Shown piece after piece: positions 8,382 through 25,306 of a stretch of 25,729 nt of DNA. The first letter of the stretch is position 1; each line of letters starts with the position of its first letter. The stretch spans positions 1 through 25,729 of the IMG/VR virus record IMGVR_UViG_3300006115_000064. One strand, written 5' to 3'. A model generated the notes under the pieces. The model searched no databases and had not been told where the DNA came from. It saw only the letters and a program-made list of their open reading frames with translations. The translations under genes and the position numbers were made by a program. This DNA is from a virus (taxonomy: Duplodnaviria > Caudoviricetes).

Positions 8382-8577
8382 TTTGCTACTGTGCTACGGT
8401 TTTGGCACCCCCCTGATGCCCCTCCATCCCTGATGCCAACAAGCTCTGTTGGCATCGCCACGGGGAATCGAACCCCGATTATGCGGGCGGTCGATTTCGT
8501 ATGTTTGTTTTTGCGTTTCTCTGTAGGTGTATGCATTTATTTGCGTTTATTTGCGTGTTTTGCTACGGTGTGTACGG
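8382..8577. promoter_or_regulatory. attP arms: candidate integrase arm-type and Xis-binding repeats
   Basis: TTTGCTAC and TGCTACGGT occur on both sides of the core (8382-8400 and ~8559-8569). TTTGCG/TTTATTTGCG repeats lie at 8510-8555, and CCCTGATGCC occurs twice (8411, 8428). Confidence 0.5.
8450..8480 (-). other. attP core: 3' fragment of a tRNA (T-arm, acceptor strand, CCA), most like tRNA-Glu
   Basis: Minus strand AAT-CGGGG-TTCGATT-CCCCG-TGGCGAT-G-CCA. No 5' tRNA half upstream. Lies about 100 bp from the integrase start. Confidence 0.85.
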
Positions 8578-8581
8578 AAAA

Positions 8582-9667
8582 ATGGCGACTATATATCGAC
8601 GTAAGGATTCAAAGTTTTATTGGCTCCGAATTAAACGCGGAGGCCGGTGGAAATGTGAGAAAACCGACTGGCTTATCGGCGACCGCGCCGGTGAGAAAAA
8701 AGCCCGTGCTTTGGCCGCCAAACGCACCCTTGAGGAAATGGCAAAAGGCCGCCAGCTTGCCGGTGATTTTGACGATTGGGTGGAAGCCTGGATGATGGAG
8801 CGATACGGCGCCCTGACGACCGCCACTTACAGCAATTACCAACTCATGTGGGGATGGCTGAGTAGTTGGATGAAAGAAGTCAATATCTCCCACCCGTGCG
8901 ATCTCACCCGCGCTCACCTGAGCCAATACCGGCAATGGCGAGCACCAGAAAACCAAAAGGGACACAATCCAGGCGGCAAAAGCGGCACAAGACGCAAAGG
9001 TGCCAGACTGAATACGGTCATCAAAGAAATACGCTTTTTGGGACTGGTGCTTGGAGAGGCCAAAGCTCGCGAATATTGCACCGACATTGTCACCTTGAAG
9101 CTTGGATGGCGCTCGGAAGAGCGACGCGAATTTGAACCCTGGACGGACGAAGAGGTCACCAAGGCGCTGAAAGCCTCCGAAAACCTTCCCAAAAAAATCC
9201 AATGGATCCGTCCGGCGCTCATTCTCGGAACCTTTCAGGCCAGTCGGGGCGCTCAGACGGCCGTTCCCCTCACCGCCTTCAACTTTGAGACCGGCATGAT
9301 CCATTGGCCACGCCATGTCATGAAAGGAAAGAAACGCGACTGGGTGCAACCCCTTGATCCGCGAGCGGCCGCACTGCTGAAGCCAATCGTGGAGGCTCGA
9401 CGAGCCGCCGGAAAGAAGACCCTTGCCGATATGCCCACCATTCTCAAAAGTCTCGACATGCGGCATTTCCTCGACGGACTTGGCATTCCCAAAGTCCATC
9501 ATGGACTCCGAGCGACTTGGATCACCAAGGCCGCCCTTGCCAATGTCCCCCAGGCGGCGGCGATGGCGTTCGTTCATCATGCCAGTGATTCGGTGCATCG
9601 GATCTATCAGAGGGTCAAACCGTCGCAGTCTGCAGAGTTTCTGAAACAGATTTCCTTCGGGAATTGA
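8582..9667 (+). CDS. int: Tyrosine recombinase (phage integrase)
   Basis: N-terminal arm-binding-like MATIYRRKDSKFYWLR. Catalytic residues R (ASRG), K (MKGK), HGLR, H (VHH) and Y (RIY). Adjacent to attP. Confidence 0.92.
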   Translation: MATIYRRKDSKFYWLRIKRGGRWKCEKTDWLIGDRAGEKKARALAAKRTLEEMAKGRQLAGDFDDWVEAWMMERYGALTTATYSNYQLMWGWLSSWMKEVNISHPCDLTRAHLSQYRQWRAPENQKGHNPGGKSGTRRKGARLNTVIKEIRFLGLVLGEAKAREYCTDIVTLKLGWRSEERREFEPWTDEEVTKALKASENLPKKIQWIRPALILGTFQASRGAQTAVPLTAFNFETGMIHWPRHVMKGKKRDWVQPLDPRAAALLKPIVEARRAAGKKTLADMPTILKSLDMRHFLDGLGIPKVHHGLRATWITKAALANVPQAAAMAFVHHASDSVHRIYQRVKPSQSAEFLKQISFGN

Positions 9668-9869
9668 TCGGTTTGATTTTGGAAGAAGGCGGATAGGCGT
9701 CCGCCATGCGAAAGTCGGGGTTTTTGGCCATCCATTCCATGGCCGCTTTGAGCGTCGTGCGACCACAGGGTACTGGAAATCCTGCCCGGCACATGGCCGA
9801 GACATACCCGTTGGAACGACCGAGACGTTCCGCTAGCTGAGACTTATTGAGCAGTTCGCTGTTGTTCAT
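9615..9869 (-). CDS. Excisionase/AlpA-like HTH protein
   Basis: LLNKSQLAERLGRS...AGFPVP...AAMEWM. Convergent with int and overlaps its 3' end by 53 bp. Confidence 0.7.
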   Translation of the reverse strand: MNNSELLNKSQLAERLGRSNGYVSAMCRAGFPVPCGRTTLKAAMEWMAKNPDFRMADAYPPSSKIKPINSRRKSVSETLQTATV

Positions 9870-14289: not shown

Positions 14290-14534
14290 CCCTTACGGGA
14301 TGCAGTCAAAACATCAATATGATTACGGATCGAATTTACTTCCTCGGCAAGGTTATCAAGTTTGTTCACTTTTACCCCGGCGATATAAACCGAACCGATC
14401 AGTTGAAGGGCAACAATGGCCATGACGGTGCGGAGTAGGGTCGAGTTGCGATCCGTTGTCCTGGCACGTTCCTCCAAGACCGCTTTGAGCGCCGCGATGT
14501 CCTCTCGTAAAATGGAAACATCGTCGGCGCTCAT
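14286..14534 (-). CDS. Small coiled-coil, single-TM protein (holin/antiholin-like)
   Basis: 82 aa with one TM segment, first gene of the lysis cassette. Confidence 0.55.
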   Translation of the reverse strand: MSADDVSILREDIAALKAVLEERARTTDRNSTLLRTVMAIVALQLIGSVYIAGVKVNKLDNLAEEVNSIRNHIDVLTASRKG

Positions 14535-15698: not shown

Positions 15699-15902
15699 TT
15701 ACGCCGTCCTCTGAATTCTTCGATTACCGTCTGAAATCGTAACCGTCAGTTGGGCAACTTGGTTTTCAGATTTGTAAAAAGTAATCGTACCACCGGAGGA
15801 AGCGGCTCCCTGCGGTGATTCAACCACCGTGTCGTATTCTGGAAGGTCGAATGGGTTGGAAATCAACAACGAACCTTTGTTGGAAAAAGGGATGGTACTC
15901 AT
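15699..15902 (-). CDS. Small hypothetical virion-associated protein
   Basis: MSTIPFSNKG...ITFYKSENQVAQLTVT, 3 nt from the next gene. Confidence 0.6.
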   Translation of the reverse strand: MSTIPFSNKGSLLISNPFDLPEYDTVVESPQGAASSGGTITFYKSENQVAQLTVTISDGNRRIQRTA

Positions 15903-15916
15903 TGTAAATCGACAAA

Positions 15917-16013
15917 TGTCAAACAAGCCTCTGGGAAGAGGCGCGTAAGACTATTTCGACAGAAATAGCCCGTAGGGCGGCACCGCTTTGTGGGAGCAAA
16001 GTGCCGTCAAAAG
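15917..16013. ncRNA. Structured intergenic element, copy 1 (candidate ncRNA, cis-regulatory RNA or ssDNA structure)
   Basis: Four hairpins whose stems covary with copy 2 at 24771-24866. Confidence 0.7.
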
Positions 16014-16044
16014 GGGGACGATCGGCAACCAACAACAAACTCAC

Positions 16045-17067
16045 CTACAGCGCCACAAACGGTTGTTCCCGTTGCCGTAAATGTCCAAAGTGTTCGGGAG
16101 TCGTGTCATGCCAAGCGACATGGTGGACGATCTCGTTTTTCCCATTGTGTTCGCGCCGCTTGATATGGTCGCAGGCGACATGGGGAACAGAGGCAATGCG
16201 CAGTCCGGCCGGATGGAAGCGGAACCAGCAAAGAAACAGATCCTGAGTGCCCTTGCCGACGTAGCCGTTGAAATCTGCCAGCGCCAAAGCTTTCTTGGAC
16301 AATAAAGTGCATCCTAATCCGCACCAATCAGAAGGAACCACCGCGCCCAAGCCAATGCCAGGGTAAGCAAAATCCATCCACCCCCTGCGCCTCCACCCAT
16401 GTTTTGCGGTCACTTCCCAAATCGTGCCATCCGGCGGTGATTTCTTGACCCATTCCCGCAGTCTCCCCATCCGCTTCATTTCCTTTTCCGCAACATTGCG
16501 GTCTTTGGTTTCCTTGAGCCGAGACTCACACGCCTCGAGGAGGATCGTCAGCCGGGGCTTGAGCTTGCGTTCTTTGGGCAAGAAATCTTCATTGATTTGG
16601 GATTGATACGATCCGAATCCTCCAAGGAAAAGTCCATTGGGATAGGTGGCCGCCGCAATGTGGTAGTAGGGATCACCCAAGGCGTCGGGCATTTGGAGTG
16701 TCCATTCCAGCACCCGAAGCGCATCGGCTGGGGGGATCGTGTCGCTTTCGACCGACCAGCAGAGATCGCTCTTGATCCGACGGGCAAACTCAAATGCCGC
16801 CCCCTGAAGCTGGGCGATCCGAATCTGAGCCGCTTCCTTGTAGCTTTTCTCATCCTCGGAGATTGGAAGGTTGAGCGTGGTGATTTTCCACCCCTCGGGC
16901 AACCTGCCCTTGGCGTATTCCGCCGCCTTCTTGGCTTCCTCGCTCTTGTCGGTGGCAAAAATGAAGTGGGCTTCCTCGTGGTGAGCCGCCGATGTGGCGA
17001 TGGCCCTGATCAGTTGAGGCCAGACATGGAGATAAGAGCGGGTTGCCGCAATAACTATCGAAATCAT
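16045..17067 (-). CDS. GT-A fold (family 2-like) glycosyltransferase; alternative start 17082
   Basis: ISIVIA N-terminal strand, VESDT (DxD-like), GLGCTLLS, TQDLFLC and CDH. Confidence 0.7.
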   Translation of the reverse strand: MISIVIAATRSYLHVWPQLIRAIATSAAHHEEAHFIFATDKSEEAKKAAEYAKGRLPEGWKITTLNLPISEDEKSYKEAAQIRIAQLQGAAFEFARRIKSDLCWSVESDTIPPADALRVLEWTLQMPDALGDPYYHIAAATYPNGLFLGGFGSYQSQINEDFLPKERKLKPRLTILLEACESRLKETKDRNVAEKEMKRMGRLREWVKKSPPDGTIWEVTAKHGWRRRGWMDFAYPGIGLGAVVPSDWCGLGCTLLSKKALALADFNGYVGKGTQDLFLCWFRFHPAGLRIASVPHVACDHIKRREHNGKNEIVHHVAWHDTTPEHFGHLRQREQPFVAL

Positions 17068-17104
17068 GGGATCGTTACCCATGAATTGATGTCAATTTTT
17101 ACAT

Positions 17105-18535
17105 TTAAAAATATCCTGAATATCCATACACCTCTGCGATAAGCCCTTTGGGACTTGCCACGACATCAATTCCTGGTTCTCCTATGGTCATTGCATGGGT
17201 TGAAACTGTATAAAAAGAATTTCCATAGGTGGTGGAAAAATGCGTCGAGGCGGTTGACGTGCCGGTTGAATAGTAAGAAGTAAATCCCCACATTCCAGCC
17301 AGGGTGGCTGGAATCGTTCCATTGATGGCTATGGCAGTTGCCCAATTACTTGTGGAATAAGTTACCGCTTCTCCAGCGTATTGATTTTCAAAAGTGGTGC
17401 TGGAAACAACAGATTTTGTCGTGTCTGATCCGCTGGTCGTCGTTTGCCAATAAAGCGCCATGCTTTTTTCCAACGCATCATAACTTCCCACGTCATAACT
17501 GAACCCGCTTTGAAATCCATATTCGTAGGGAACGCCAAAATAGTTATTGGGAACGATTAACTGAAGTTGCGGGGTAACATTTGCAATTTCGACCCAGTTG
17601 TTGGTTGAATCTGAAATCCCAAAAGAAAAACCTTTGTAATTGGAACCATCCAAAACAAACCCCTGGGTAATTGTGGTGGCCGTTGTTGCAACTCCATTTT
17701 CAAAAACAAACTTTGCCATGCTATCAGGTACAAGATTTGGCGGATAAATTGGAAGAGTAACTTGATCAAATGTAAACAGTTGGTTGGCCCCTCCTGTATA
17801 TTTATAGCCCGTTGATTGGTTACCATGTCTCTTATACAATCCATAGAGTTCGGTGTAGGATGAACCAGAAGAATTTGTGGAAAATCCCGTTGTCAATGTC
17901 AACGTTTCCATTTGCGGCGCCTGAACAGGAGTCATGTGATATCGATCTTCATTCCTCCAATCACCAGTTTCAGAATAAGGATATTCGGTAAAAATATCCC
18001 CCCCAACAAATCCCCCCATCAATTCCACAGAAGATGTCAGATAAATTGTTTCAGCGGGCGGATAAACCGTGACAACAGTTGTTGAATACGAATTGGCCAA
18101 CCCCACATCCGTATCCCAAATTGTGGCCACGTCATAGCGGGTCACATAAGAATTCCAGTTAGGATCTGAATCATACGAATTGGTAAAAATTACAAATCCC
18201 TGTTCCCAGCTTGAATCGGTTGATAGCTCCAAAAGATGTCCCTGAAAATTTGCAGGGATATTTGTAAAATTACCTACATGAGTAATCGGATGCGGAGATG
18301 TCTCGGTGTCGGTTTGCGCCGTGAATGTCTCGTAAGATGTGTATGCCCATGACGTTGAGGAACTGCTATCAGATCCGATGGCTAATCCAGTTGCCGTTTG
18401 ATTGCCGCCGGTCAAATCCTGATACACATACGATCCGGCCTGAACTGTTGGGAACGTCATCGCATACGATCCCGTCACCTCATAGCTCGAGCTTGACGTT
18501 ACGTTATGTCCGTCCAGATCGTAAAAGGCCGCCAT
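17105..18535 (-). CDS. Ser/Thr/Tyr-rich putative tail tip or receptor-binding protein
   Basis: 476 aa, beta-rich and very S/T-rich, AT-richer DNA, located after tape measure and hub genes. Confidence 0.6.
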   Translation of the reverse strand: MAAFYDLDGHNVTSSSSYEVTGSYAMTFPTVQAGSYVYQDLTGGNQTATGLAIGSDSSSSTSWAYTSYETFTAQTDTETSPHPITHVGNFTNIPANFQGHLLELSTDSSWEQGFVIFTNSYDSDPNWNSYVTRYDVATIWDTDVGLANSYSTTVVTVYPPAETIYLTSSVELMGGFVGGDIFTEYPYSETGDWRNEDRYHMTPVQAPQMETLTLTTGFSTNSSGSSYTELYGLYKRHGNQSTGYKYTGGANQLFTFDQVTLPIYPPNLVPDSMAKFVFENGVATTATTITQGFVLDGSNYKGFSFGISDSTNNWVEIANVTPQLQLIVPNNYFGVPYEYGFQSGFSYDVGSYDALEKSMALYWQTTTSGSDTTKSVVSSTTFENQYAGEAVTYSTSNWATAIAINGTIPATLAGMWGFTSYYSTGTSTASTHFSTTYGNSFYTVSTHAMTIGEPGIDVVASPKGLIAEVYGYSGYF

Positions 18536-18538
18536 GGA

Positions 18539-19105
18539 TCACCAGGTCCAGATGTAATGTGGCACCGGGGTGTTGGTATCCCCTTCGTAAGTCGTGTAAG
18601 CAACCACGGGAACGGGATTGACCCAATTTTTTGCCAGCAGATTCCACGGTTTTCCATCGATAATGACTCCGGCGGGAATCTGAAATTCCCCCGACGGTTC
18701 ATAAGCAGTTGGAGTTTGTCCCGTAAATGGATCCGTTCCCGCCATGATATTGACGGATGTTACCGATCCATTGGTGGCCGTGACGTTTAAAGAGACATTC
18801 ACTTGCTGGGTCAAATCAACTGTGATCGGAGTAAAAATGTTAGACGCTAAAAAACCGGATACGGTGCCTGGCATCAACAACATCTGATCTTCACCTGCAT
18901 TATTGACCGAAAGTATGATATCAAACGGAAGGGTTTTTTTCTGAAATGGGACGTTTGAAGAAACAATAAAACCGCCGGGAGTCTGCGAGACCCTTGTCCC
19001 CTCCCCCGCCATTGGCCTTAAGCTTGCCAGGGTATCCACCACTTTGTTGGCCCAGGCCGCAGTAACTTCATCACCCCGCGAAACTTTCGACGGAAGCGTG
19101 ATCAT
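18539..19105 (-). CDS. Minor tail protein
   Basis: MITLPSKVSRGDEVTAAWAN... N-terminus and tail-module position. Confidence 0.6.
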   Translation of the reverse strand: MITLPSKVSRGDEVTAAWANKVVDTLASLRPMAGEGTRVSQTPGGFIVSSNVPFQKKTLPFDIILSVNNAGEDQMLLMPGTVSGFLASNIFTPITVDLTQQVNVSLNVTATNGSVTSVNIMAGTDPFTGQTPTAYEPSGEFQIPAGVIIDGKPWNLLAKNWVNPVPVVAYTTYEGDTNTPVPHYIWTW

Positions 19106-19142
19106 GGCAAAAACTAAAAAATAAAATCTGGAATCAATCGGC

Positions 19143-19358
19143 TCACTTGAGCGCCAAAACCAATTTGCCAGCACCCGACGGGGTGATCGACAACGAGAAA
19201 AGAGTCAGATCCGAAGCCGTTTTATTTTCAGGAAACGCAATTACCGAAGCGGGGGCGTTTTGCAAAAGCTCCACAAGTCCATTGACCTGATCGGCGCTGA
19301 TGGACAATGAAACCTGGACGGGTTTGGACGGGATCGTGATCGTGATCGGTGTGGTCAT
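19143..19358 (-). CDS. Small hypothetical protein
   Basis: MTTPITITIPSKPV..., with start preceded by TTGACA-N14. Confidence 0.55.
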   Translation of the reverse strand: MTTPITITIPSKPVQVSLSISADQVNGLVELLQNAPASVIAFPENKTASDLTLFSLSITPSGAGKLVLALK

Positions 19359-19378
19359 TATAGAAGCCAAGATGTCAA

Positions 19379-20008
19379 TCAAACGTAAATTTTGCTGTTC
19401 CAACCGCCAGCTCCACTCAGCATCCAGGATTCGCTCACTTCAAACACGCCAGATCGAGACACAATCTTGGGGGTCAATTTCAACCAATTTCTCCAATCAA
19501 TCACCGGAATCGTGATCAAATCGTAGGTCGGACCCGAGATTTTGCCGATATTATCAAACAACCCATCCACAGAATCAAGGTTTCCAACGGATTGGTTTTT
19601 TCTAAAAGTCGCCGTCATCGCAAGATAACTGGTGCAACCATACAACGGATTGGGGGATCCATCCGGTTTTGTTTTGGCAAAGGAATTGGAGGCCGGATCG
19701 TATTTATACACGGCGGCGATGCCCGTATCTTTGGTCAGGAAATTGGGATGGCTCTGGATCGGTTCCTCGTGCATGGAAAAATCCAGTTCCTCGGTGATCA
19801 TCCCTTGGGCATCCGTGGATCGATATTCGCCAACCCAAAATGCACCACTCTCATCAACCGAGAAATTTGATTCTTCGTAAGCGGCGGCAAAGTTTTCCGC
19901 TTCGGTTGGCAATGCGCCATCCTGAGAGGGAAACGCATAGCGGTCGGTCTGTGTAAAAAGCCCCGTCCGATCAAGCGTAAAACTGCCACCGATGATTTCA
20001 ATACTCAT
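19379..20008 (-). CDS. Minor tail protein (distal-tail/hub-like), paralogue B
   Basis: Full-length similarity to 20016-20726, located after the tape measure gene. Confidence 0.7.
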   Translation of the reverse strand: MSIEIIGGSFTLDRTGLFTQTDRYAFPSQDGALPTEAENFAAAYEESNFSVDESGAFWVGEYRSTDAQGMITEELDFSMHEEPIQSHPNFLTKDTGIAAVYKYDPASNSFAKTKPDGSPNPLYGCTSYLAMTATFRKNQSVGNLDSVDGLFDNIGKISGPTYDLITIPVIDWRNWLKLTPKIVSRSGVFEVSESWMLSGAGGWNSKIYV

Positions 20009-20015
20009 AAATTCC

Positions 20016-20726
20016 TTAGTTGTCGGAAGTATTCAAAACGCTTAAAGCCACTTGAGAATAGATTTCGGGGATCCATCCAGTGCCAAATCCCGACAACATC
20101 CATTCCTGAGTGATTTGAAAAGCATTCCCTCGGGAGGCAATCTTGGGCGCCAAATATAGCCAGGTGCGCTCATCACCTTCCGCAGGATCGGCGATTTTTT
20201 GAAACGGCACGTTGTCGTCAATCGTGCCGATATTGTCGAAAATCGTCGAAGGTACCGATTCCAATGTTTGGATCTGACGATAGACGCATGAATAGGAAAG
20301 GAAATCGGTTGTTCCAAATACCGGGCTGTCATTTCCACCAGATATCTTTTTGGGAAACGATTGCGTTGCCTCATCCCATCCGTAAGTCGAAACAAGGTTT
20401 TGAAAATTGGGGCTTGTTTGAATGGGACTTTGAATCGAGCTGAAATCAAGCTCTTCAATCAATCCAATGTCGTTTGATGTATTTACTTCAGAAGAACCAG
20501 CAACCTTTTCGTAATTCCAGTTGCAAACCCAATTTCCGGCCTCATCCCCTTTCCCACCGCCACCCACAAAGAGCGCCCCATCATAGGTGTTGCCGACTTC
20601 TGCATACGTTCCTGTCACGGCTGATTCCTTGGATGAAAAAAAGACGTTTCGGGTAATTTTATAAAGACCCGTGCGATCAATGGATCGCTTTTCCCCCAAC
20701 AAAAATGATCCGTCAATCAGGCTCAT
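20016..20726 (-). CDS. Minor tail protein (distal-tail/hub-like), paralogue A
   Basis: Immediately downstream of the tape measure gene and paralogous to the next gene. Confidence 0.7.
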   Translation of the reverse strand: MSLIDGSFLLGEKRSIDRTGLYKITRNVFFSSKESAVTGTYAEVGNTYDGALFVGGGGKGDEAGNWVCNWNYEKVAGSSEVNTSNDIGLIEELDFSSIQSPIQTSPNFQNLVSTYGWDEATQSFPKKISGGNDSPVFGTTDFLSYSCVYRQIQTLESVPSTIFDNIGTIDDNVPFQKIADPAEGDERTWLYLAPKIASRGNAFQITQEWMLSGFGTGWIPEIYSQVALSVLNTSDN

Positions 20727-20735
20727 GGACGATCG

Positions 20736-22250
20736 TTATGCAAACCGAGCACCAAAGGGACCAGAACCGATGTCGGGATTTTTTCTTGTTGCCGCATCAG
20801 CAATCCGTTGAAGCAGTCCGGTCTGTCGCCTGTTTTCATCCAAAAGGGGGTCCCCTTGGCCACCGGCAAATCCTCCCCCGCCGATTTTCCGCAATGAGTC
20901 GGCAAAGGCATTTTTGTTTTTCCCAATGCCCTCCACCTCATCGTCACCGCTCAGGTTTTGAGCATATTTTTTGCGGTTCTTTTCCCGTGCCTCACTCAAG
21001 ACTGCGGTGCTCTTTTCCGTGGCCGTAAATGCCCCTTTGAATGCGCCAAGGCTTTGCTTGATGGAATCAACAATCAGACCCCCGCCTTCTTTCATGGTGC
21101 CGTTGGCATCCTGTGATCCCTGACGGGCAAGCTGCGTGGCTCCATTACCCTCGGCCTGAACCTGCTTGAGGTTTTCATCAAAGCTTGAGGCTTTGAATCC
21201 GGTGGTGCCGGTGAGGTTATTGAGTCCCGGGATATTTCCGACACCTTCCATCAGTTTCTCGATCGCGGTCTGGATCGCGGCCTGCAAGTAATCGAGCGGC
21301 GTATGAAACGCAAACAGGAGGGCGGCACCGAGCTTTTCGATAAGACCACCCAAGATACCGACCGCACCAACGATGAATTCAGGAATATGCCCCAAGAGAT
21401 CCCCAAGAAAATCGCCAAGCCCTTCAAAGACTTCTTCAAATTGTTTGTCGAAATCGGTGGCAAAGTTTTCCAAAAAATTCCCCATTTGCTCACCCACACC
21501 GGAAAGATCGATCTGGTCGCCAACTTCCAAAAGCGGTTCCAGGGCGGCCATGACCGGCCCCGCCAGTCCTATGAAAAGCCCTTGAAGCTTTTCACCCACA
21601 TGTTCCAACTGGTCATGCGCTTCCTTGAACAGATAAGCGTTTTCCCCAAGCTTTGCCGCTGTGGCGGAAATATCCCCTGCATTCTTGAAATCGGGGTTCA
21701 TGAAGATCTGAAGCAATTCGCTTCCCTGCTTGCCAAAGATGGCCAGTGCCGCCTTGGCGCGGTCTGAATCATTGCCAATCTGTGAAATGGCTGTCCCTAT
21801 GTCTCGGAACGCTTCATCTGGTTTTTTGTTTGCCTCTGCCTGGGCATCAATTCCCATGTTCTTGAGAACCGGGGTGCCACCCGTCGAAACGGCTTCGGAA
21901 AGATATTTCTGCATTTTCCCAATGCTGGGACCGATTTTTTCGGCCTCCACTCCACTGTCCCTGAACAGCCGCCGCATCATCATGAGCTGATCGACGGCAA
22001 TGCCCGTCCTGTTGGAAAGGTTGACCATGTCATCGCCCAATTCCACCGCTCCATGGATGCCTTCCATGATCCCGCCCAGCGTTGCCACGGAAGCCGTGGC
22101 CGCCGCAAGAGGTGCCAGAAGTTCGCCGATGCCGATCTTTTCCCCAAGCTTGGAAGCCGATTCGCTAAAATCTTTTAGCTCATGCTTGCTCTTGGCAATT
22201 TTTGAATCAAACGACCCGGTGATCAGGTCCAATGCAAATTCGACGCTCAT
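20736..22250 (-). CDS. Tail tape measure protein
   Basis: 504 aa, helical, Ala/Gly-rich. LSNRTGIAVDQL and ALAIFGKQGSELL are typical TMP segments. Confidence 0.85.
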   Translation of the reverse strand: MSVEFALDLITGSFDSKIAKSKHELKDFSESASKLGEKIGIGELLAPLAAATASVATLGGIMEGIHGAVELGDDMVNLSNRTGIAVDQLMMMRRLFRDSGVEAEKIGPSIGKMQKYLSEAVSTGGTPVLKNMGIDAQAEANKKPDEAFRDIGTAISQIGNDSDRAKAALAIFGKQGSELLQIFMNPDFKNAGDISATAAKLGENAYLFKEAHDQLEHVGEKLQGLFIGLAGPVMAALEPLLEVGDQIDLSGVGEQMGNFLENFATDFDKQFEEVFEGLGDFLGDLLGHIPEFIVGAVGILGGLIEKLGAALLFAFHTPLDYLQAAIQTAIEKLMEGVGNIPGLNNLTGTTGFKASSFDENLKQVQAEGNGATQLARQGSQDANGTMKEGGGLIVDSIKQSLGAFKGAFTATEKSTAVLSEAREKNRKKYAQNLSGDDEVEGIGKNKNAFADSLRKIGGGGFAGGQGDPLLDENRRQTGLLQRIADAATRKNPDIGSGPFGARFA

Positions 22251-22253
22251 GGC

Positions 22254-22955
22254 TTATTTCACCGGAAGTCCCGATGCTTTCATCTGTTTCTCCTCAAGGT
22301 TTTTCAAAATCTTGGTCATGTTTTTTATCTGCACATTCACGGCATAGGTGACGCGGCGTTGCATGTCTTTCATGTGACCGGCAAACTTGACCTCGTTCGA
22401 TGCTCGGAATGCGATCCCCTTTGGTCCGATGCTCAAATCACAATGACCAGGGGCGCTGTGACGGCCGATCCATGCGGGGTAACGAACTTTTCCCAATTTC
22501 TTTGCCGCCGGAATCCAACCGCTTGCCAAAAAACCGACCATTTTCTTCTTTTCCTGCTTGTAGGCACGAAGGATGGCCGTCGGTACTTTGAACCGCTGGT
22601 CTTTTTTTCCAGCTTTGTTCAATGATTTCTGGACGCGGCCGGTCGATGCCTGACGAAAGGATTTGTGAATTGAACCAGGCGAACTGGAATCGGGTTTCTT
22701 TCCGCTGTAGGCACGCATGATCTTTGCCAGATCATTCATGACGGCTTGTTCCCCACGTTTCCGAGCTTCGCCGCCGCTGGTCATTTCACCGGCTGAAGGA
22801 TCCCAACCGCTCGGAGGCGTCACGGCGATCACCGTGCGCAGAATGCCGCGTGCCTGGGTCTTCATGGCCTCCATGCGTGACCGCTTGGAATCGCGCATGT
22901 AGGTGTCGAAAGCCCGAAGGAATTTGTCGGTGTTGCGGGGTGTGATTCTTACCAT
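22254..22955 (-). CDS. Basic tail completion/neck protein (HK97 gp10-like)
   Basis: Highly basic, VIAVTPP and GFLASGW motifs, tail-module position. Confidence 0.5.
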   Translation of the reverse strand: MVRITPRNTDKFLRAFDTYMRDSKRSRMEAMKTQARGILRTVIAVTPPSGWDPSAGEMTSGGEARKRGEQAVMNDLAKIMRAYSGKKPDSSSPGSIHKSFRQASTGRVQKSLNKAGKKDQRFKVPTAILRAYKQEKKKMVGFLASGWIPAAKKLGKVRYPAWIGRHSAPGHCDLSIGPKGIAFRASNEVKFAGHMKDMQRRVTYAVNVQIKNMTKILKNLEEKQMKASGLPVK

Positions 22956-23194
22956 GGATCGTCTTCCACAGCAGGGGTGTCAAAGAATTCCAAAAGCGTC
23001 CCAAGCTCTTCCAACTGGATTTCTTTTGAAGGGCTGGCATCCACCGTCCAGATGTCGTGACTGCGGTAGCAAGCGTGCAGATACTGCAGGAGCCTGGCCA
23101 GCGGCATGCGCAAGATGTGGCGTTCCGGCCATCCCGTTTCCTTTGCGATCGTGAAGACCAGCGAGGCGGTACGGGATGGCTCCCTCAGTTTGGG
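22949..23194 (-). CDS. Tail assembly chaperone, -1 frameshift extension (gpT-like part)
   Basis: Slippery C CCA AAC at 23194-23188. The -1 frame reads KLREPSRTASLVFTIAKETGWPERHILRMPLARLLQY...EDDPW and stops at 22949. Confidence 0.75.
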   Translation of the reverse strand, partial: PKLREPSRTASLVFTIAKETGWPERHILRMPLARLLQYLHACYRSHDIWTVDASPSKEIQLEELGTLLEFFDTPAVEDDPW

Positions 23195-23604
23195 GGGGGT
23201 GTTTCCTTGGAAGACCCAATGCCCGGTTTGTCGTGAACATCAACGGTGGCCTCATGCACTCCGGCCACGATTTGTTCGACCACATCACGCAAGCCGACCA
23301 GACCGGTCATCGGGATTCTGCGGGCAAACTGACGAACCGCGCTCCGATAGCTTTCCGGCGAATCACTCTTAAACGGAACGGCATCGGGATCTGTCCCATG
23401 AATATACAGGAATTCCGTCATTTGCTGGATTTGTTCGGTCACCGAAAGTTTCACCGATGGGTCGTAAAGGAATGTCAGCTCCGCATCCATCACGATAAGT
23501 TGCGTTTCCAAAGAAAACCGATGAAAGGTCAGTCCGTTCCAAATAATCGGCGAGTCGCGGAATGCTTTGTTCAACACGGAAGGAGTTTTCTTGCTCATGA
23601 TCAA
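23185..23604 (-). CDS. Tail assembly chaperone (gpG-like)
   Basis: Ends ...KETPPPN with a slippery heptamer just before the stop, upstream of the tape measure gene. Confidence 0.75.
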   Translation of the reverse strand: MIMSKKTPSVLNKAFRDSPIIWNGLTFHRFSLETQLIVMDAELTFLYDPSVKLSVTEQIQQMTEFLYIHGTDPDAVPFKSDSPESYRSAVRQFARRIPMTGLVGLRDVVEQIVAGVHEATVDVHDKPGIGSSKETPPPN

Positions 23605-24071
23605 AAAAGTTCCAAAAGCTTGCGACCGCGCTCGGTAGGCACCAGTTTCCCATCAGGCCCGCGAGTCGTCGAGACATAAGCGCTCCGGCCGCTCTTCTGG
23701 ATGTGTAGTTGCGGTGGATTATCCCGGATGGCATCGCGCAATTTGCCGATCTTTTCCATGTAAGTGCGCAGGTAGGTGATCGGGTGATCAAGGTTGGCCG
23801 CGAGCCATGACCGGTCGTTCCACCGGCGCAACAGTTCCTGAGTGCTGATTGTCTCACCGGAAAAAGCCGAAAATTCAATTTCACGCTCTTCCGCAACCCA
23901 AACAACCGTCCTGGTCGGTTTGCCATCCTGAGTGCCGATTGCATTAAGGTATCCCCCTTCCTTGACAAGTTGCCCGCCGCAAGTAAGAAGCGCTCCGATG
24001 GCTTGGGTGTTGGGCGATTTGAGCGGATCCTCTTCGTCCCGCAGATAATGGTATGTCTGGCCTGTTTTCAT
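23601..24071 (-). CDS. Hypothetical protein in the tail operon
   Basis: 156-aa ORF, ATGA-coupled to the chaperone. Confidence 0.7.
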   Translation of the reverse strand: MKTGQTYHYLRDEEDPLKSPNTQAIGALLTCGGQLVKEGGYLNAIGTQDGKPTRTVVWVAEEREIEFSAFSGETISTQELLRRWNDRSWLAANLDHPITYLRTYMEKIGKLRDAIRDNPPQLHIQKSGRSAYVSTTRGPDGKLVPTERGRKLLELF

Positions 24072-24096
24072 TCTAAAATGTCACCGCGCTTAACGA

Positions 24097-24420
24097 TTAT
24101 GCGCCGGGAAAGATTTTGGCGGTGTATTTGAACGCACGGAAATCGTCGTTCTTTTGCGTGGTTTCCACCATATCAACGATGATCTTGCCCGAAGTAAGTC
24201 CGGTGGGACCTGTGGTTGGAGTGGCAATCGTGGCCGGATTTGTGTCGCCGTACCCTTCGCAGGACATTTCTCCGGTTGGATCAAATGTGGCAAAACCGCC
24301 AAACCCTCCCTTGTAATCCATGTAGGTTTTTGTCTCCAATTTATTGGTGACACTTACCTTGGTAAGAGCCGTGGCCGAGAGAAGGTTGATTCCGATACCA
24401 CCTGTATAAGTTGCGCTCAT
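24097..24420 (-). CDS. Small tail-tube-like protein, paralogue B
   Basis: 107 aa, Thr/Gly-rich beta protein similar to 24436-24756. Lies between the terminator and the chaperone. Confidence 0.6.
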   Translation of the reverse strand: MSATYTGGIGINLLSATALTKVSVTNKLETKTYMDYKGGFGGFATFDPTGEMSCEGYGDTNPATIATPTTGPTGLTSGKIIVDMVETTQKNDDFRAFKYTAKIFPGA

Positions 24421-24435
24421 GTAATGATAAAAAAA

Positions 24436-24756
24436 TTATGAGGCGTTTGCGCTGTAGGCGACTGCTTCGATTTTTGTTTTTGGAAAATCATCGTTGGTGT
24501 CGTCCTGAGACACGGAAATGACCGTCAGTGTTCCACTTCCTATTGAAGAATTGTGCGTCAGACCAAAGGTTGCCGTACCGACCACATCGATCGAAACCTT
24601 GTGCTCTACCATCGGTACCGGCAAAGCCGCAACCGTAACGCCAGATTCGTCGCGGTAGGTTTTGATCGTGGCGGTTGTCGTCTCCGTGAAAGACTGCACG
24701 TTGCCCGTGTAATTGGGAGTGATCGGAAGGGTTCCGACGCCAAAGGTTGCGCTCAT
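24436..24756 (-). CDS. Small tail-tube-like protein, paralogue A
   Basis: MSATFG...KTYRD...NDDF matches MSATYT...KTYMD...NDDF of the next gene. Confidence 0.6.
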   Translation of the reverse strand: MSATFGVGTLPITPNYTGNVQSFTETTTATIKTYRDESGVTVAALPVPMVEHKVSIDVVGTATFGLTHNSSIGSGTLTVISVSQDDTNDDFPKTKIEAVAYSANAS

Positions 24757-24770
24757 ATCCCTAAGTGCGG

Positions 24771-24866
24771 TGTCAAACAAGCCGGTGGGAACCGGCGCGT
24801 AAGACTACGACGTAGGAGTAGCCCGAAGGGCGGCACCGGTCGCCGGGAGGCGACTGCCGTCAAAAG
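24771..24866. ncRNA. Structured intergenic element, copy 2
   Basis: Same linkers and loops as 15917-16013, with compensatory stem changes. Confidence 0.7.
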
Positions 24867-24877
24867 CCAACATCCCA

Positions 24878-25306
24878 TCACGCCACCACCGGGGTCACAC
24901 CGATATCGATTTCAATGTCGATCACATGACGTTCGTGATCCACCTGCTCCCTGACGGTCATCCCTGCCAAGCCCGCGTAGCTCCATGATGTTTGTGCGGC
25001 ATTGAAATCAGATGCCAGGGAAGATGACGGACCCTGACCATACTGGTCAAAGAGCGCGACGATCGCCGAAGCCCGGTGACGATGGAGCGCCAAATCACTG
25101 CCGGCGGCCGGAGTGGTCAGACGAAGAGGACAAGTCGATTTCCAGAGTCCCAAGGCCGTGCGCTGGGCATTGGTAGCCTCCACAATGAGTAGCGGTTGGC
25201 CATTGGGAATTTGTTCGGCACTTGTGCCTGGATGAATGATCAGTCCATCTAGGGATGCTTGGGTAGAAAGGATGCCAATGAGGCCAAGTTCGATATCTGC
25301 GGTCAT
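24878..25306 (-). CDS. Putative tail terminator protein
   Basis: 142 aa with P-LIV motif, located between head-tail joining and tube genes. Confidence 0.5.
   Translation of the reverse strand: MTADIELGLIGILSTQASLDGLIIHPGTSAEQIPNGQPLLIVEATNAQRTALGLWKSTCPLRLTTPAAGSDLALHRHRASAIVALFDQYGQGPSSSLASDFNAAQTSWSYAGLAGMTVREQVDHERHVIDIEIDIGVTPVVA

Follow-up and report, generated by a model that had tools for sequence, protein, structure and literature searches.

Two copies of a four-hairpin element at late-gene starts

We analysed a 25,729-nt stretch of viral DNA (the window; IMG/VR virus record IMGVR_UViG_3300006115_000064), which is part of a temperate siphovirus-like phage with every late gene on the minus strand. 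The window carries two copies of a non-coding element made of four hairpins on the plus strand, each copy just upstream of a late-gene start. Copy 1 lies at 15923–16010 (88 nt, 106 bits with a model of what we call type I) and copy 2 at 24777–24863 (87 nt, 111 bits); the two are mutually only 78% alike. The copies belong to a real and apparently undescribed family, best read as non-autonomous single-stranded DNA (ssDNA) hairpin elements.

On the plus strand, copy 1 consists of hairpin A (15927–15942), a linker (15943–15950), hairpin B (15951–15968), hairpin C (15969–15977), a bulged hairpin D (15978–16006) and a terminal TCAA (16007–16010). Copy 2 has the same order, with hairpin A at 24781–24796, the linker at 24797–24804, hairpin B at 24805–24821, hairpin C at 24822–24830, hairpin D at 24831–24859 and TCAA at 24860–24863. 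A pentamer GTCAA adjoins the left end of each (15918–15922 and 24772–24776); on the minus strand it is the TTGAC of a late-gene start motif, 15 nt before an ATG.

An initial annotation of the sequence had described the copies as about 97 nt long, at 15917–16013 and 24771–24866, ending 14 nt before a minus-strand ATG. Both copies have the sequences given there, and the 14-nt gap between those edges and the start codons (CAT at 15900–15902 and 24754–24756) is exact at both. The boundaries had to be corrected, as the first six bases of the annotated copies are target site and the last three are flank.

Behind copy 1 starts a 67-aa gene of unassigned function (15699–15902, minus), whose homologues have an empty site in record G010 and a decayed copy in G005. 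Upstream of copy 1 is a 345-aa gene (16045–17082, minus), homologues of which precede near-identical copies in G004 and G009. The 106-aa gene behind copy 2 (24436–24756, minus) is possibly tail tube-like, a lead only (score 0.89), and its orthologues in loci L241 and L242 have an empty site; the 142-aa gene upstream of copy 2 (24878–25306, minus) is without a family match. A tape measure protein gene lies between the copies (20736–22250, minus; phrog_8462, E 2.6e-13). The copies had been taken to bracket the tail module, but this arrangement is incidental, since relatives have copies before many other late genes.

The element is carried or cleanly missing at the same site

Pattern scans of IMG/VR gave 10, 12, 60 and 111 stretches, from which matches without a 6-bp stem were discarded as chance, and Joint Genome Institute metagenomes gave 23 stretches with the strict type I pattern, one of them a host-like locus. 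About 30 distinct copies were found in related siphoviruses, and the element also occurs in one bacterial-looking contig. A 33.6-kb record, G001, has the same two copies as the window, and the nearest named phage by its terminase is Akkermansia phage Moulinsart (39.5%). The strict pattern, which divergent subtypes would escape, had no true match in a species-genome collection of 185,579 genomes. The type I model, run with no positive control, had none on 151 genomes of the phylum of G011 (Proteobacteria), and BLASTN found no match in GenBank phages and only short partial matches in plasmids. A single genome_contigs match, in Nitrosomonas, was dismissed as chance, having no stems and no model match.

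When the element is removed in silico, the result equals the empty allele of a relative. Flanking bases are identical at 64 of 64 positions for L273 against L270 and for L079 against L043, and at 62 of 64 for L031 against L267. Three more distant filled and empty pairs agree at 52, 47 and 38 of 64, the last being copy 2 against L242. The junctions of filled and empty alleles fix the ends of copies 1 and 2 as given above. As far as sequence comparison goes, the element is an insertion, carried or cleanly missing at the same site in near-identical phages, and the comparison is compatible with either gain or loss. Such a polymorphic site-specific insertion is a possibility absent from the alternatives of the initial annotation. 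We consider it very probable that the insertion is mobile.

Copies number 1–4 per phage, at unrelated sites. The four copies at four sites of G002 are 86–93% alike, compared with a mean of 73% for 262 pairs differing in both genome and site. Type I copies occupy 25 starts across nine protein families, two of them probably homologous. Seven of these families include a member scored as empty; in one case (L232) the site is in fact filled and contains an additional spacer. One copy is decayed (G005) and one is partial with a duplicated target (L054). Further flanks were seen in contigs of other DNA sequencing runs, and no joint skipping the element was present in the DNA contigs of sequencing runs. 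Among the runs listed as holding the element none was of RNA, which has no bearing on expression.

These results bear on the required functions considered at first, namely a put-like or processing RNA, a small RNA, a sponge or a hairpin promoter. They find no support, because near-identical phages are without the element at the same gene, because one copy has decayed, and because the spacing to ATG comes from the target motif. A put-like antiterminator, which would act as nascent RNA to suppress downstream termination, is indirectly disfavoured by the strand asymmetry described below as well as by the empty alleles.

The same comparison speaks to the suggestion that the element is a recombination joint kept for tail-module swaps, either as a boundary sequence or as an attC-like site. 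Copy 1 is 96–98% identical to the copies in G004 and G009 (98% to that in G009), which have the same upstream gene and a different downstream gene, and several relatives encode a tyrosine integrase. Such near-identity ahead of different downstream genes suggests that crossovers may take place in the element or in its target, possibly as a side effect. A joint kept for tail-module swaps is nevertheless very improbable: copies also precede portal, protease and capsid-region genes with gene order unchanged there, the window copies differ from each other as much as stated above, and four short hairpins are unlike the simple attC hairpin (excerpts of PMC5737381). The pattern is more likely a side effect of shared sequence. 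The idea of a structured module boundary is thus partly supported, as a by-product.

The target is a general late-gene start motif

The target is TTTGACA-N13–17-ATG, a general start motif of late genes in these phages. Across ten phage records, TTGAC stands 14–17 nt before an ATG at 49 sites, compared with 7.5 for control pentamers. In 80 portal-centred loci (L246–L325), which are mutually related, 247 of 813 late-strand TTGAC have an ATG frame 14–18 nt downstream, compared with 4 of 803 on the opposite strand. TTTGACA is the consensus, no second box accompanies it and most such starts lack a Shine-Dalgarno site; several early genes instead have Shine-Dalgarno sites. In G001 the motif occurs at 7 of 23 late starts and at 0 of 9 post-lysis or early starts, and it is missing at 19 starts of Akkermansia phage Moulinsart. 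A sigma-70 scan gave 9 sites, compared with 11.3 expected, none of them at the element. The motif may be a leaderless promoter or a translation signal.

The motif also occurs alone. On the minus strand of the window, TTGAC without an element is found at 19374–19378 and 14305–14309, each 15 nt before an ATG (at 19358 and 14289), and the start motif is also at 22979–22983. Among 557 distinct motif-bearing starts, 515 were classed empty, 25 hold type I and 17 hold sister types. The fixed distance of the element to ATG therefore follows from the motif itself, which has that spacing. Insertion leaves both TTTGACA and its spacing to ATG intact, which likely explains why it is tolerated.

In the open-licence literature we found no published description of the TTTGACA start motif. 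The element exposes a strong gene-start signal in phages whose host class has few Shine-Dalgarno genes; in Spartobacteria these are about 10% (excerpts of PMC10783764).

Late-gene starts of relatives hold other sequences as well. Seven-base tandem repeats occur at several of them (L224, before the tape measure gene; L003; L359). These presumably resemble repeats around four-helix-bundle genes, and a motif search found no such gene. Some relatives have tRNA-Trp or tRNA-Met genes between a small post-terminase gene and the portal start motif (L267:2795–2870, L271:2923–2998, L315:250–323), and in L257 and L259 a different long hairpin is inserted before that motif.

The structure is conserved and favours the plus strand

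The helices proposed in the initial annotation pair in 95.8% of 780 cells over 30 distinct copies, compared with 79.6 ± 0.8% in shuffles and 36–47% in slid controls. Both-sided changes occur at 17 of 26 pairs; these pairing and covariation counts are inflated by relatedness of the copies. Between copies 1 and 2, the changes reported earlier are all present, with two compensatory pairs in the first hairpin and four compensatory pairs plus one wobble-to-canonical change in the fourth. That secondary structure is under selection is thus supported by covariation over 30 copies. Across the aligned copies, neither hairpin A nor hairpin D changes in length, their GGGA loops are nearly invariant and the linkers are conserved; both the length and the sequence of hairpin B are free to vary.

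The earlier statement that the family was not recognised also finds support. Rfam has no match on the element at E ≤ 5, with one unrelated match in the window at E 4. For eight sister-type loci it gave only two unrelated matches (E 0.6–0.7), and no type matched a ribozyme or intron. No published description of the element was found in open-licence literature. The motif was not seen in six supplementary files of PMC10690425, an IMG/VR catalogue of viral candidate RNAs, whose files 1, 2 and 4, which lie outside that search, may list it.

Which strand folds was examined in 28 copies. The plus strand, which is the template strand and antisense to the late genes, has 5 G·T wobbles in its fixed stems as opposed to 0 A·C; the remaining mismatches are T·T (1), C·T (1), A·G or G·A (4) and G·G (1). 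It folds better than the minus strand in 28 of 28 copies with DNA parameters and in 26 of 28 with RNA parameters. Hairpin C has a GNA triloop in 23 of 25 copies (GAA 12, GGA 6, GTA 5). According to excerpts of PMC13037366, GNA triloops are the only ones forming DNA mini-hairpins, and the RNA counterpart with a GAAA loop is much weaker. The wobbles and the triloops favour DNA folding of the plus strand, in line with the initial remark that its loops suit ssDNA. The element thus probably folds as ssDNA on the plus strand. RNA-motif screens cannot distinguish ssDNA motifs from RNA motifs, as stated in an excerpt of PMC5737381, and the element adds a caution for them: strong covariation upstream of genes may reflect mobile DNA rather than regulatory RNA.

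A perfect four-way junction closed by GAC/GTC was considered and rejected. In 10 of 28 copies its third pair, at the hairpin B foot, is G·G, which leaves just two base pairs of general occurrence.

Folding z-scores against dinucleotide shuffles are, for copies 1 and 2, −3.64 and −2.87 for plus-strand RNA, −4.66 and −3.47 for minus-strand RNA, and −3.76 and −3.04 for plus-strand DNA. The minus-strand values would suit a plug-in transcription insulator, in which hairpin A and the UUGUUUG after it serve the late mRNA as a site of termination or processing, uncoupling the following gene, itself provided with its own start motif; phages would gain or lose the element by recombination and keep it to tune virion protein levels. 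Both copies are terminator-like on the minus strand, and types I–III have a fixed orientation and gene-start position. The match to a terminator is weak, however, because terminator-like sites number 21, compared with 14.8 ± 3.8 in shuffles. Moreover, the U run is partly derived from the target, the wobbles and loops favour the other strand, and hairpins B–D, the exact ectopic junctions and the type V copies inside unrelated repeats (see below) would be left unexplained. We therefore give both the insulator and its proposed upkeep a low probability. Termination by hairpin A and the T run on the mRNA strand is predicted as a possible side effect.

A small intron-like or self-cleaving RNA, copied into DNA by a host reverse transcriptase with the plus strand as the complementary DNA, would suit an element that lies within late transcripts. 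Stems of set length, a bulge that does not vary and invariant loops are seen in tertiary RNA folds, the L054 partial copy with its duplicated target fits aborted synthesis, and the tRNA genes of relatives sit in the same intergenic slots. Yet such an RNA-based element is unlikely as well, given that none of the types matches an Rfam ribozyme or intron, that the ends misfit the splice-site rules of group I and group II introns, that no reverse transcriptase was found in any of five complete phages, and that GNA triloops with any N are a DNA feature.

DNA hairpins could alternatively be of use to the phage as a signal, either an N4-like template-strand promoter aid or a loading site for primase or primosome. 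GNA-loop hairpins do lie on the template strand just upstream of the gene-start motif, and mini-hairpins of this GNA kind serve in N4 virion RNA polymerase promoters as well as in G4/ssiA priming sites (excerpts of PMC13037366). There is only a slight chance of this, because 515 of the 557 motif-bearing starts are without the element, no RNA polymerase gene was among the scanned open reading frames (ORFs), and copies occur once to four times per phage at unrelated sites, some decayed or nested. The element differs from the N4 and G4 hairpins in being dispensable and polymorphic, no virion polymerase was found, and the downstream motif occurs alone.

Junctions, termini and a candidate guide

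All 29 type I and all 6 type III copies have GTCAA as the left target, and all 12 type V copies have CACAA. The right end is GTCAA or ATCAA in 24 of 29 type I copies. Inverted repeats are absent from the element ends. Hairpin B has at its foot two bases that track the first two of the terminal tetranucleotide: the foot/terminus pair is GA/TC in types I (29 copies), III (6) and V (12), GT/AC in all 8 type II copies, and GC/GC in one variant (by eye). We discarded a 6-bp target duplication of TTTGAC, since the heads of the sister types differ from it and in one pair the T at this position comes from the element.

Sister types and a host locus

Types II, III and V have a common order of hairpin, purine linker, hairpin, hairpin, GGGA-type hairpin and NCAA, and type V scores 24–41 bits with the type I model. 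Sister types occur in nested tandem arrays, usually with the intact copy nearest the gene and short footprints upstream, and the same gene start holds different types in different phages. Beside copy 1 in the window, 16014–16032 (plus) is the right-end remnant of a type II element, 14 nt of which match an intact type II copy in L224 (comparison by eye). Types I–III always have one orientation and one placement with respect to the gene start. Type V inserts after CACAA in short tandem repeats (9-nt units) that belong to other phages, in many cases with no TTTGAC nearby (L326–L381). In L377, two inverted type V copies lie 0.8 kb apart (1933–2020 and 2778–2864). A further short hairpin unit, type IV, is found inside type II or before type III elements (L008, L013, L197, L230:5550).

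Five hairpin elements, of three kinds and nested in one array, precede an iron-sulfur assembly gene (TIGR00049) in L199 (55–678) and L200, where TTGAC lies 31 nt before ATG, an ordinary −35 distance. The encoded protein is 82% identical to a cluster named Chthoniobacterales bacterium. From the roughly 1.3 kb seen, we infer that this locus is host chromosome and that the host belongs to the order Chthoniobacterales.

Comparison with known mobile hairpin elements

Ends-only hairpin elements are known from bacterial chromosomes. The element resembles palindrome-associated transposable elements (PATEs) and IS608 in being non-coding, in its one-strand hairpins, in insertion after a fixed short motif and in precise empty sites. 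Insertion is 3′ of a fixed penta- or tetranucleotide without terminal inverted repeats, a 3–5-nt duplication being possible; in-silico removal reproduces the empty alleles, as precise excision would; and the subterminal hairpins are strand-specific, presumably as DNA rather than RNA. IS608 acts on one strand of ssDNA, inserts 3′ of a tetranucleotide, excises precisely and has a TCAA end with guide GAAT (excerpts of PMC5027513, PMC3201880 and PMC5934647), and ends-only IS200/IS605 copies moved in trans have been described (PMC7290912 and bioRxiv 2023.03.14.532601, in part). The right-end TCAA and hairpin-foot GA of our element compare with the right cleavage site TCAA and right guide GAAT of IS608 in those excerpts. 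There are differences: the element has 85–100 nt with four stacked hairpins, its last hairpin reaches right up to the end, from which that of IS608 is 10 nt away, neither a left guide nor a parent element or TnpA/TnpB was found, and the target coincides with a phage gene-start motif.

Repetitive extragenic palindromic (REP) sequences, bacterial interspersed mosaic elements (BIMEs) and REPINs are likewise small extragenic hairpins in mosaic arrays, and most type V copies have GTAG before hairpin B. They are thought to be moved in trans as ssDNA by TnpA-REP (RAYT), according to an excerpt of PMC8266576. Against the descriptions excerpted from PMC8266576, PMC3733652 and PMC6006769, the type I linker is GCGTAAGA and no GTAG/CGTC tag stands at the hairpin foot, and there are four hairpins instead of one 20–50-nt palindrome. 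Copy number is low, no RAYT lies beside any copy, and copies are tandem on the same strand rather than inverted pairs. On the tag and on copy number with a flanking RAYT, the element thus does not qualify as a REP-type sequence.

Classical miniature inverted-repeat transposable elements share the short, non-coding, multi-copy form and the empty sites, but have the terminal inverted repeats that are absent here. HK022 put RNA also comprises several adjacent stem-loops near gene starts in a temperate phage; it differs from the element, whose structure favours the non-transcribed strand and which has sporadic sites and exact empty alleles. A possible likeness to palindromes inserted in gammaproteobacterial tRNA genes was not confirmed in the open-licence literature.

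Proposed mobilization

By analogy, the element likely works like a PATE of the IS200/IS605 group and is a candidate member of it; the cognate enzyme was not found in the phages and the guide rule is obeyed only in part. We lean slightly towards a non-coding mobile element that folds as plus-strand ssDNA and is moved in trans by an HUH/Y1-type transposase, probably from the host. Such a transposase would excise and re-insert the folded plus strand. Stems would stay intact because only folded copies move, and the late-gene motif would be a safe landing site, since motif and ATG spacing survive insertion.

Several observations weigh against this. No Y1 transposase was found in any of ten phage records, and the ORFs of 398 loci showed no HUH-like motif; a scan of 145 ORFs from the phages (cluster representatives of at least 95 aa) likewise yielded no such enzyme. 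The scan matches included no longer, coding element sharing the ends. Five portal-lineage copies end in GTCCA or GTCCC, one host copy has no target to its left, and in one contig the left flank is a different one. A target duplication or a recombination core might equally account for the repeat common to both junctions, which is CAA and in type I reaches up to 5 nt. The fourth base of the guide is variable (GACT 11, GATC 9, GAGC 5, GAGT 5, GACC 1), and the guide does not track the left target, type II inserting after TCAA and type V after ACAA. Its tracking of the terminus rests on about two independent changes, with the type II register set by us, and could reflect a plain 2-bp helix. As to the molecule, the better fold of the plus strand with RNA parameters in 26 of 28 copies and GGGA, which is a GNRA loop in RNA too, are not specific to DNA, and in the divergent copy L110 it is the mRNA strand that carries the wobble. 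Only 4 of the 22 branches of the element tree have support, so that most of it is unresolved.

Exact empty sites in phages and an end like that of IS608, in so small a family and with no parent in sight, point to a mobilising enzyme still to be identified, for which the copies are ready substrates. A wider reading, which we regard as tentative and rather unlikely as a whole, joins these points. It supposes a superfamily of sub-100-nt ssDNA elements common to Chthoniobacterales and their phages, each with a short internal guide by which a multi-hairpin junction is closed onto the element's own terminus. The enzyme would be an HUH type not yet described, and the landing site a late-gene start signal just as new to the literature, where the element would add a terminator and a recombination joint that rewire virion modules.

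Other features of the window

Where relatives carry an integrase, the window has long overlapping frames on opposite strands (8501–9667, plus; 8609–9805, minus), neither with a Pfam match. The 398-aa minus-strand ORF at 8609–9805 was set aside as a candidate enzyme, being apparently a shadow of the plus-strand frame as judged from relatives; that plus frame has no Pfam or NCBIfam match. The segment 4483–6990 (minus) encodes a phage ATP-dependent DNA ligase and a DnaN-like sliding clamp. In the replication region, a 25-nt direct repeat, 96% identical, occurs at 2207–2231 and 2478–2502, 271 nt apart.

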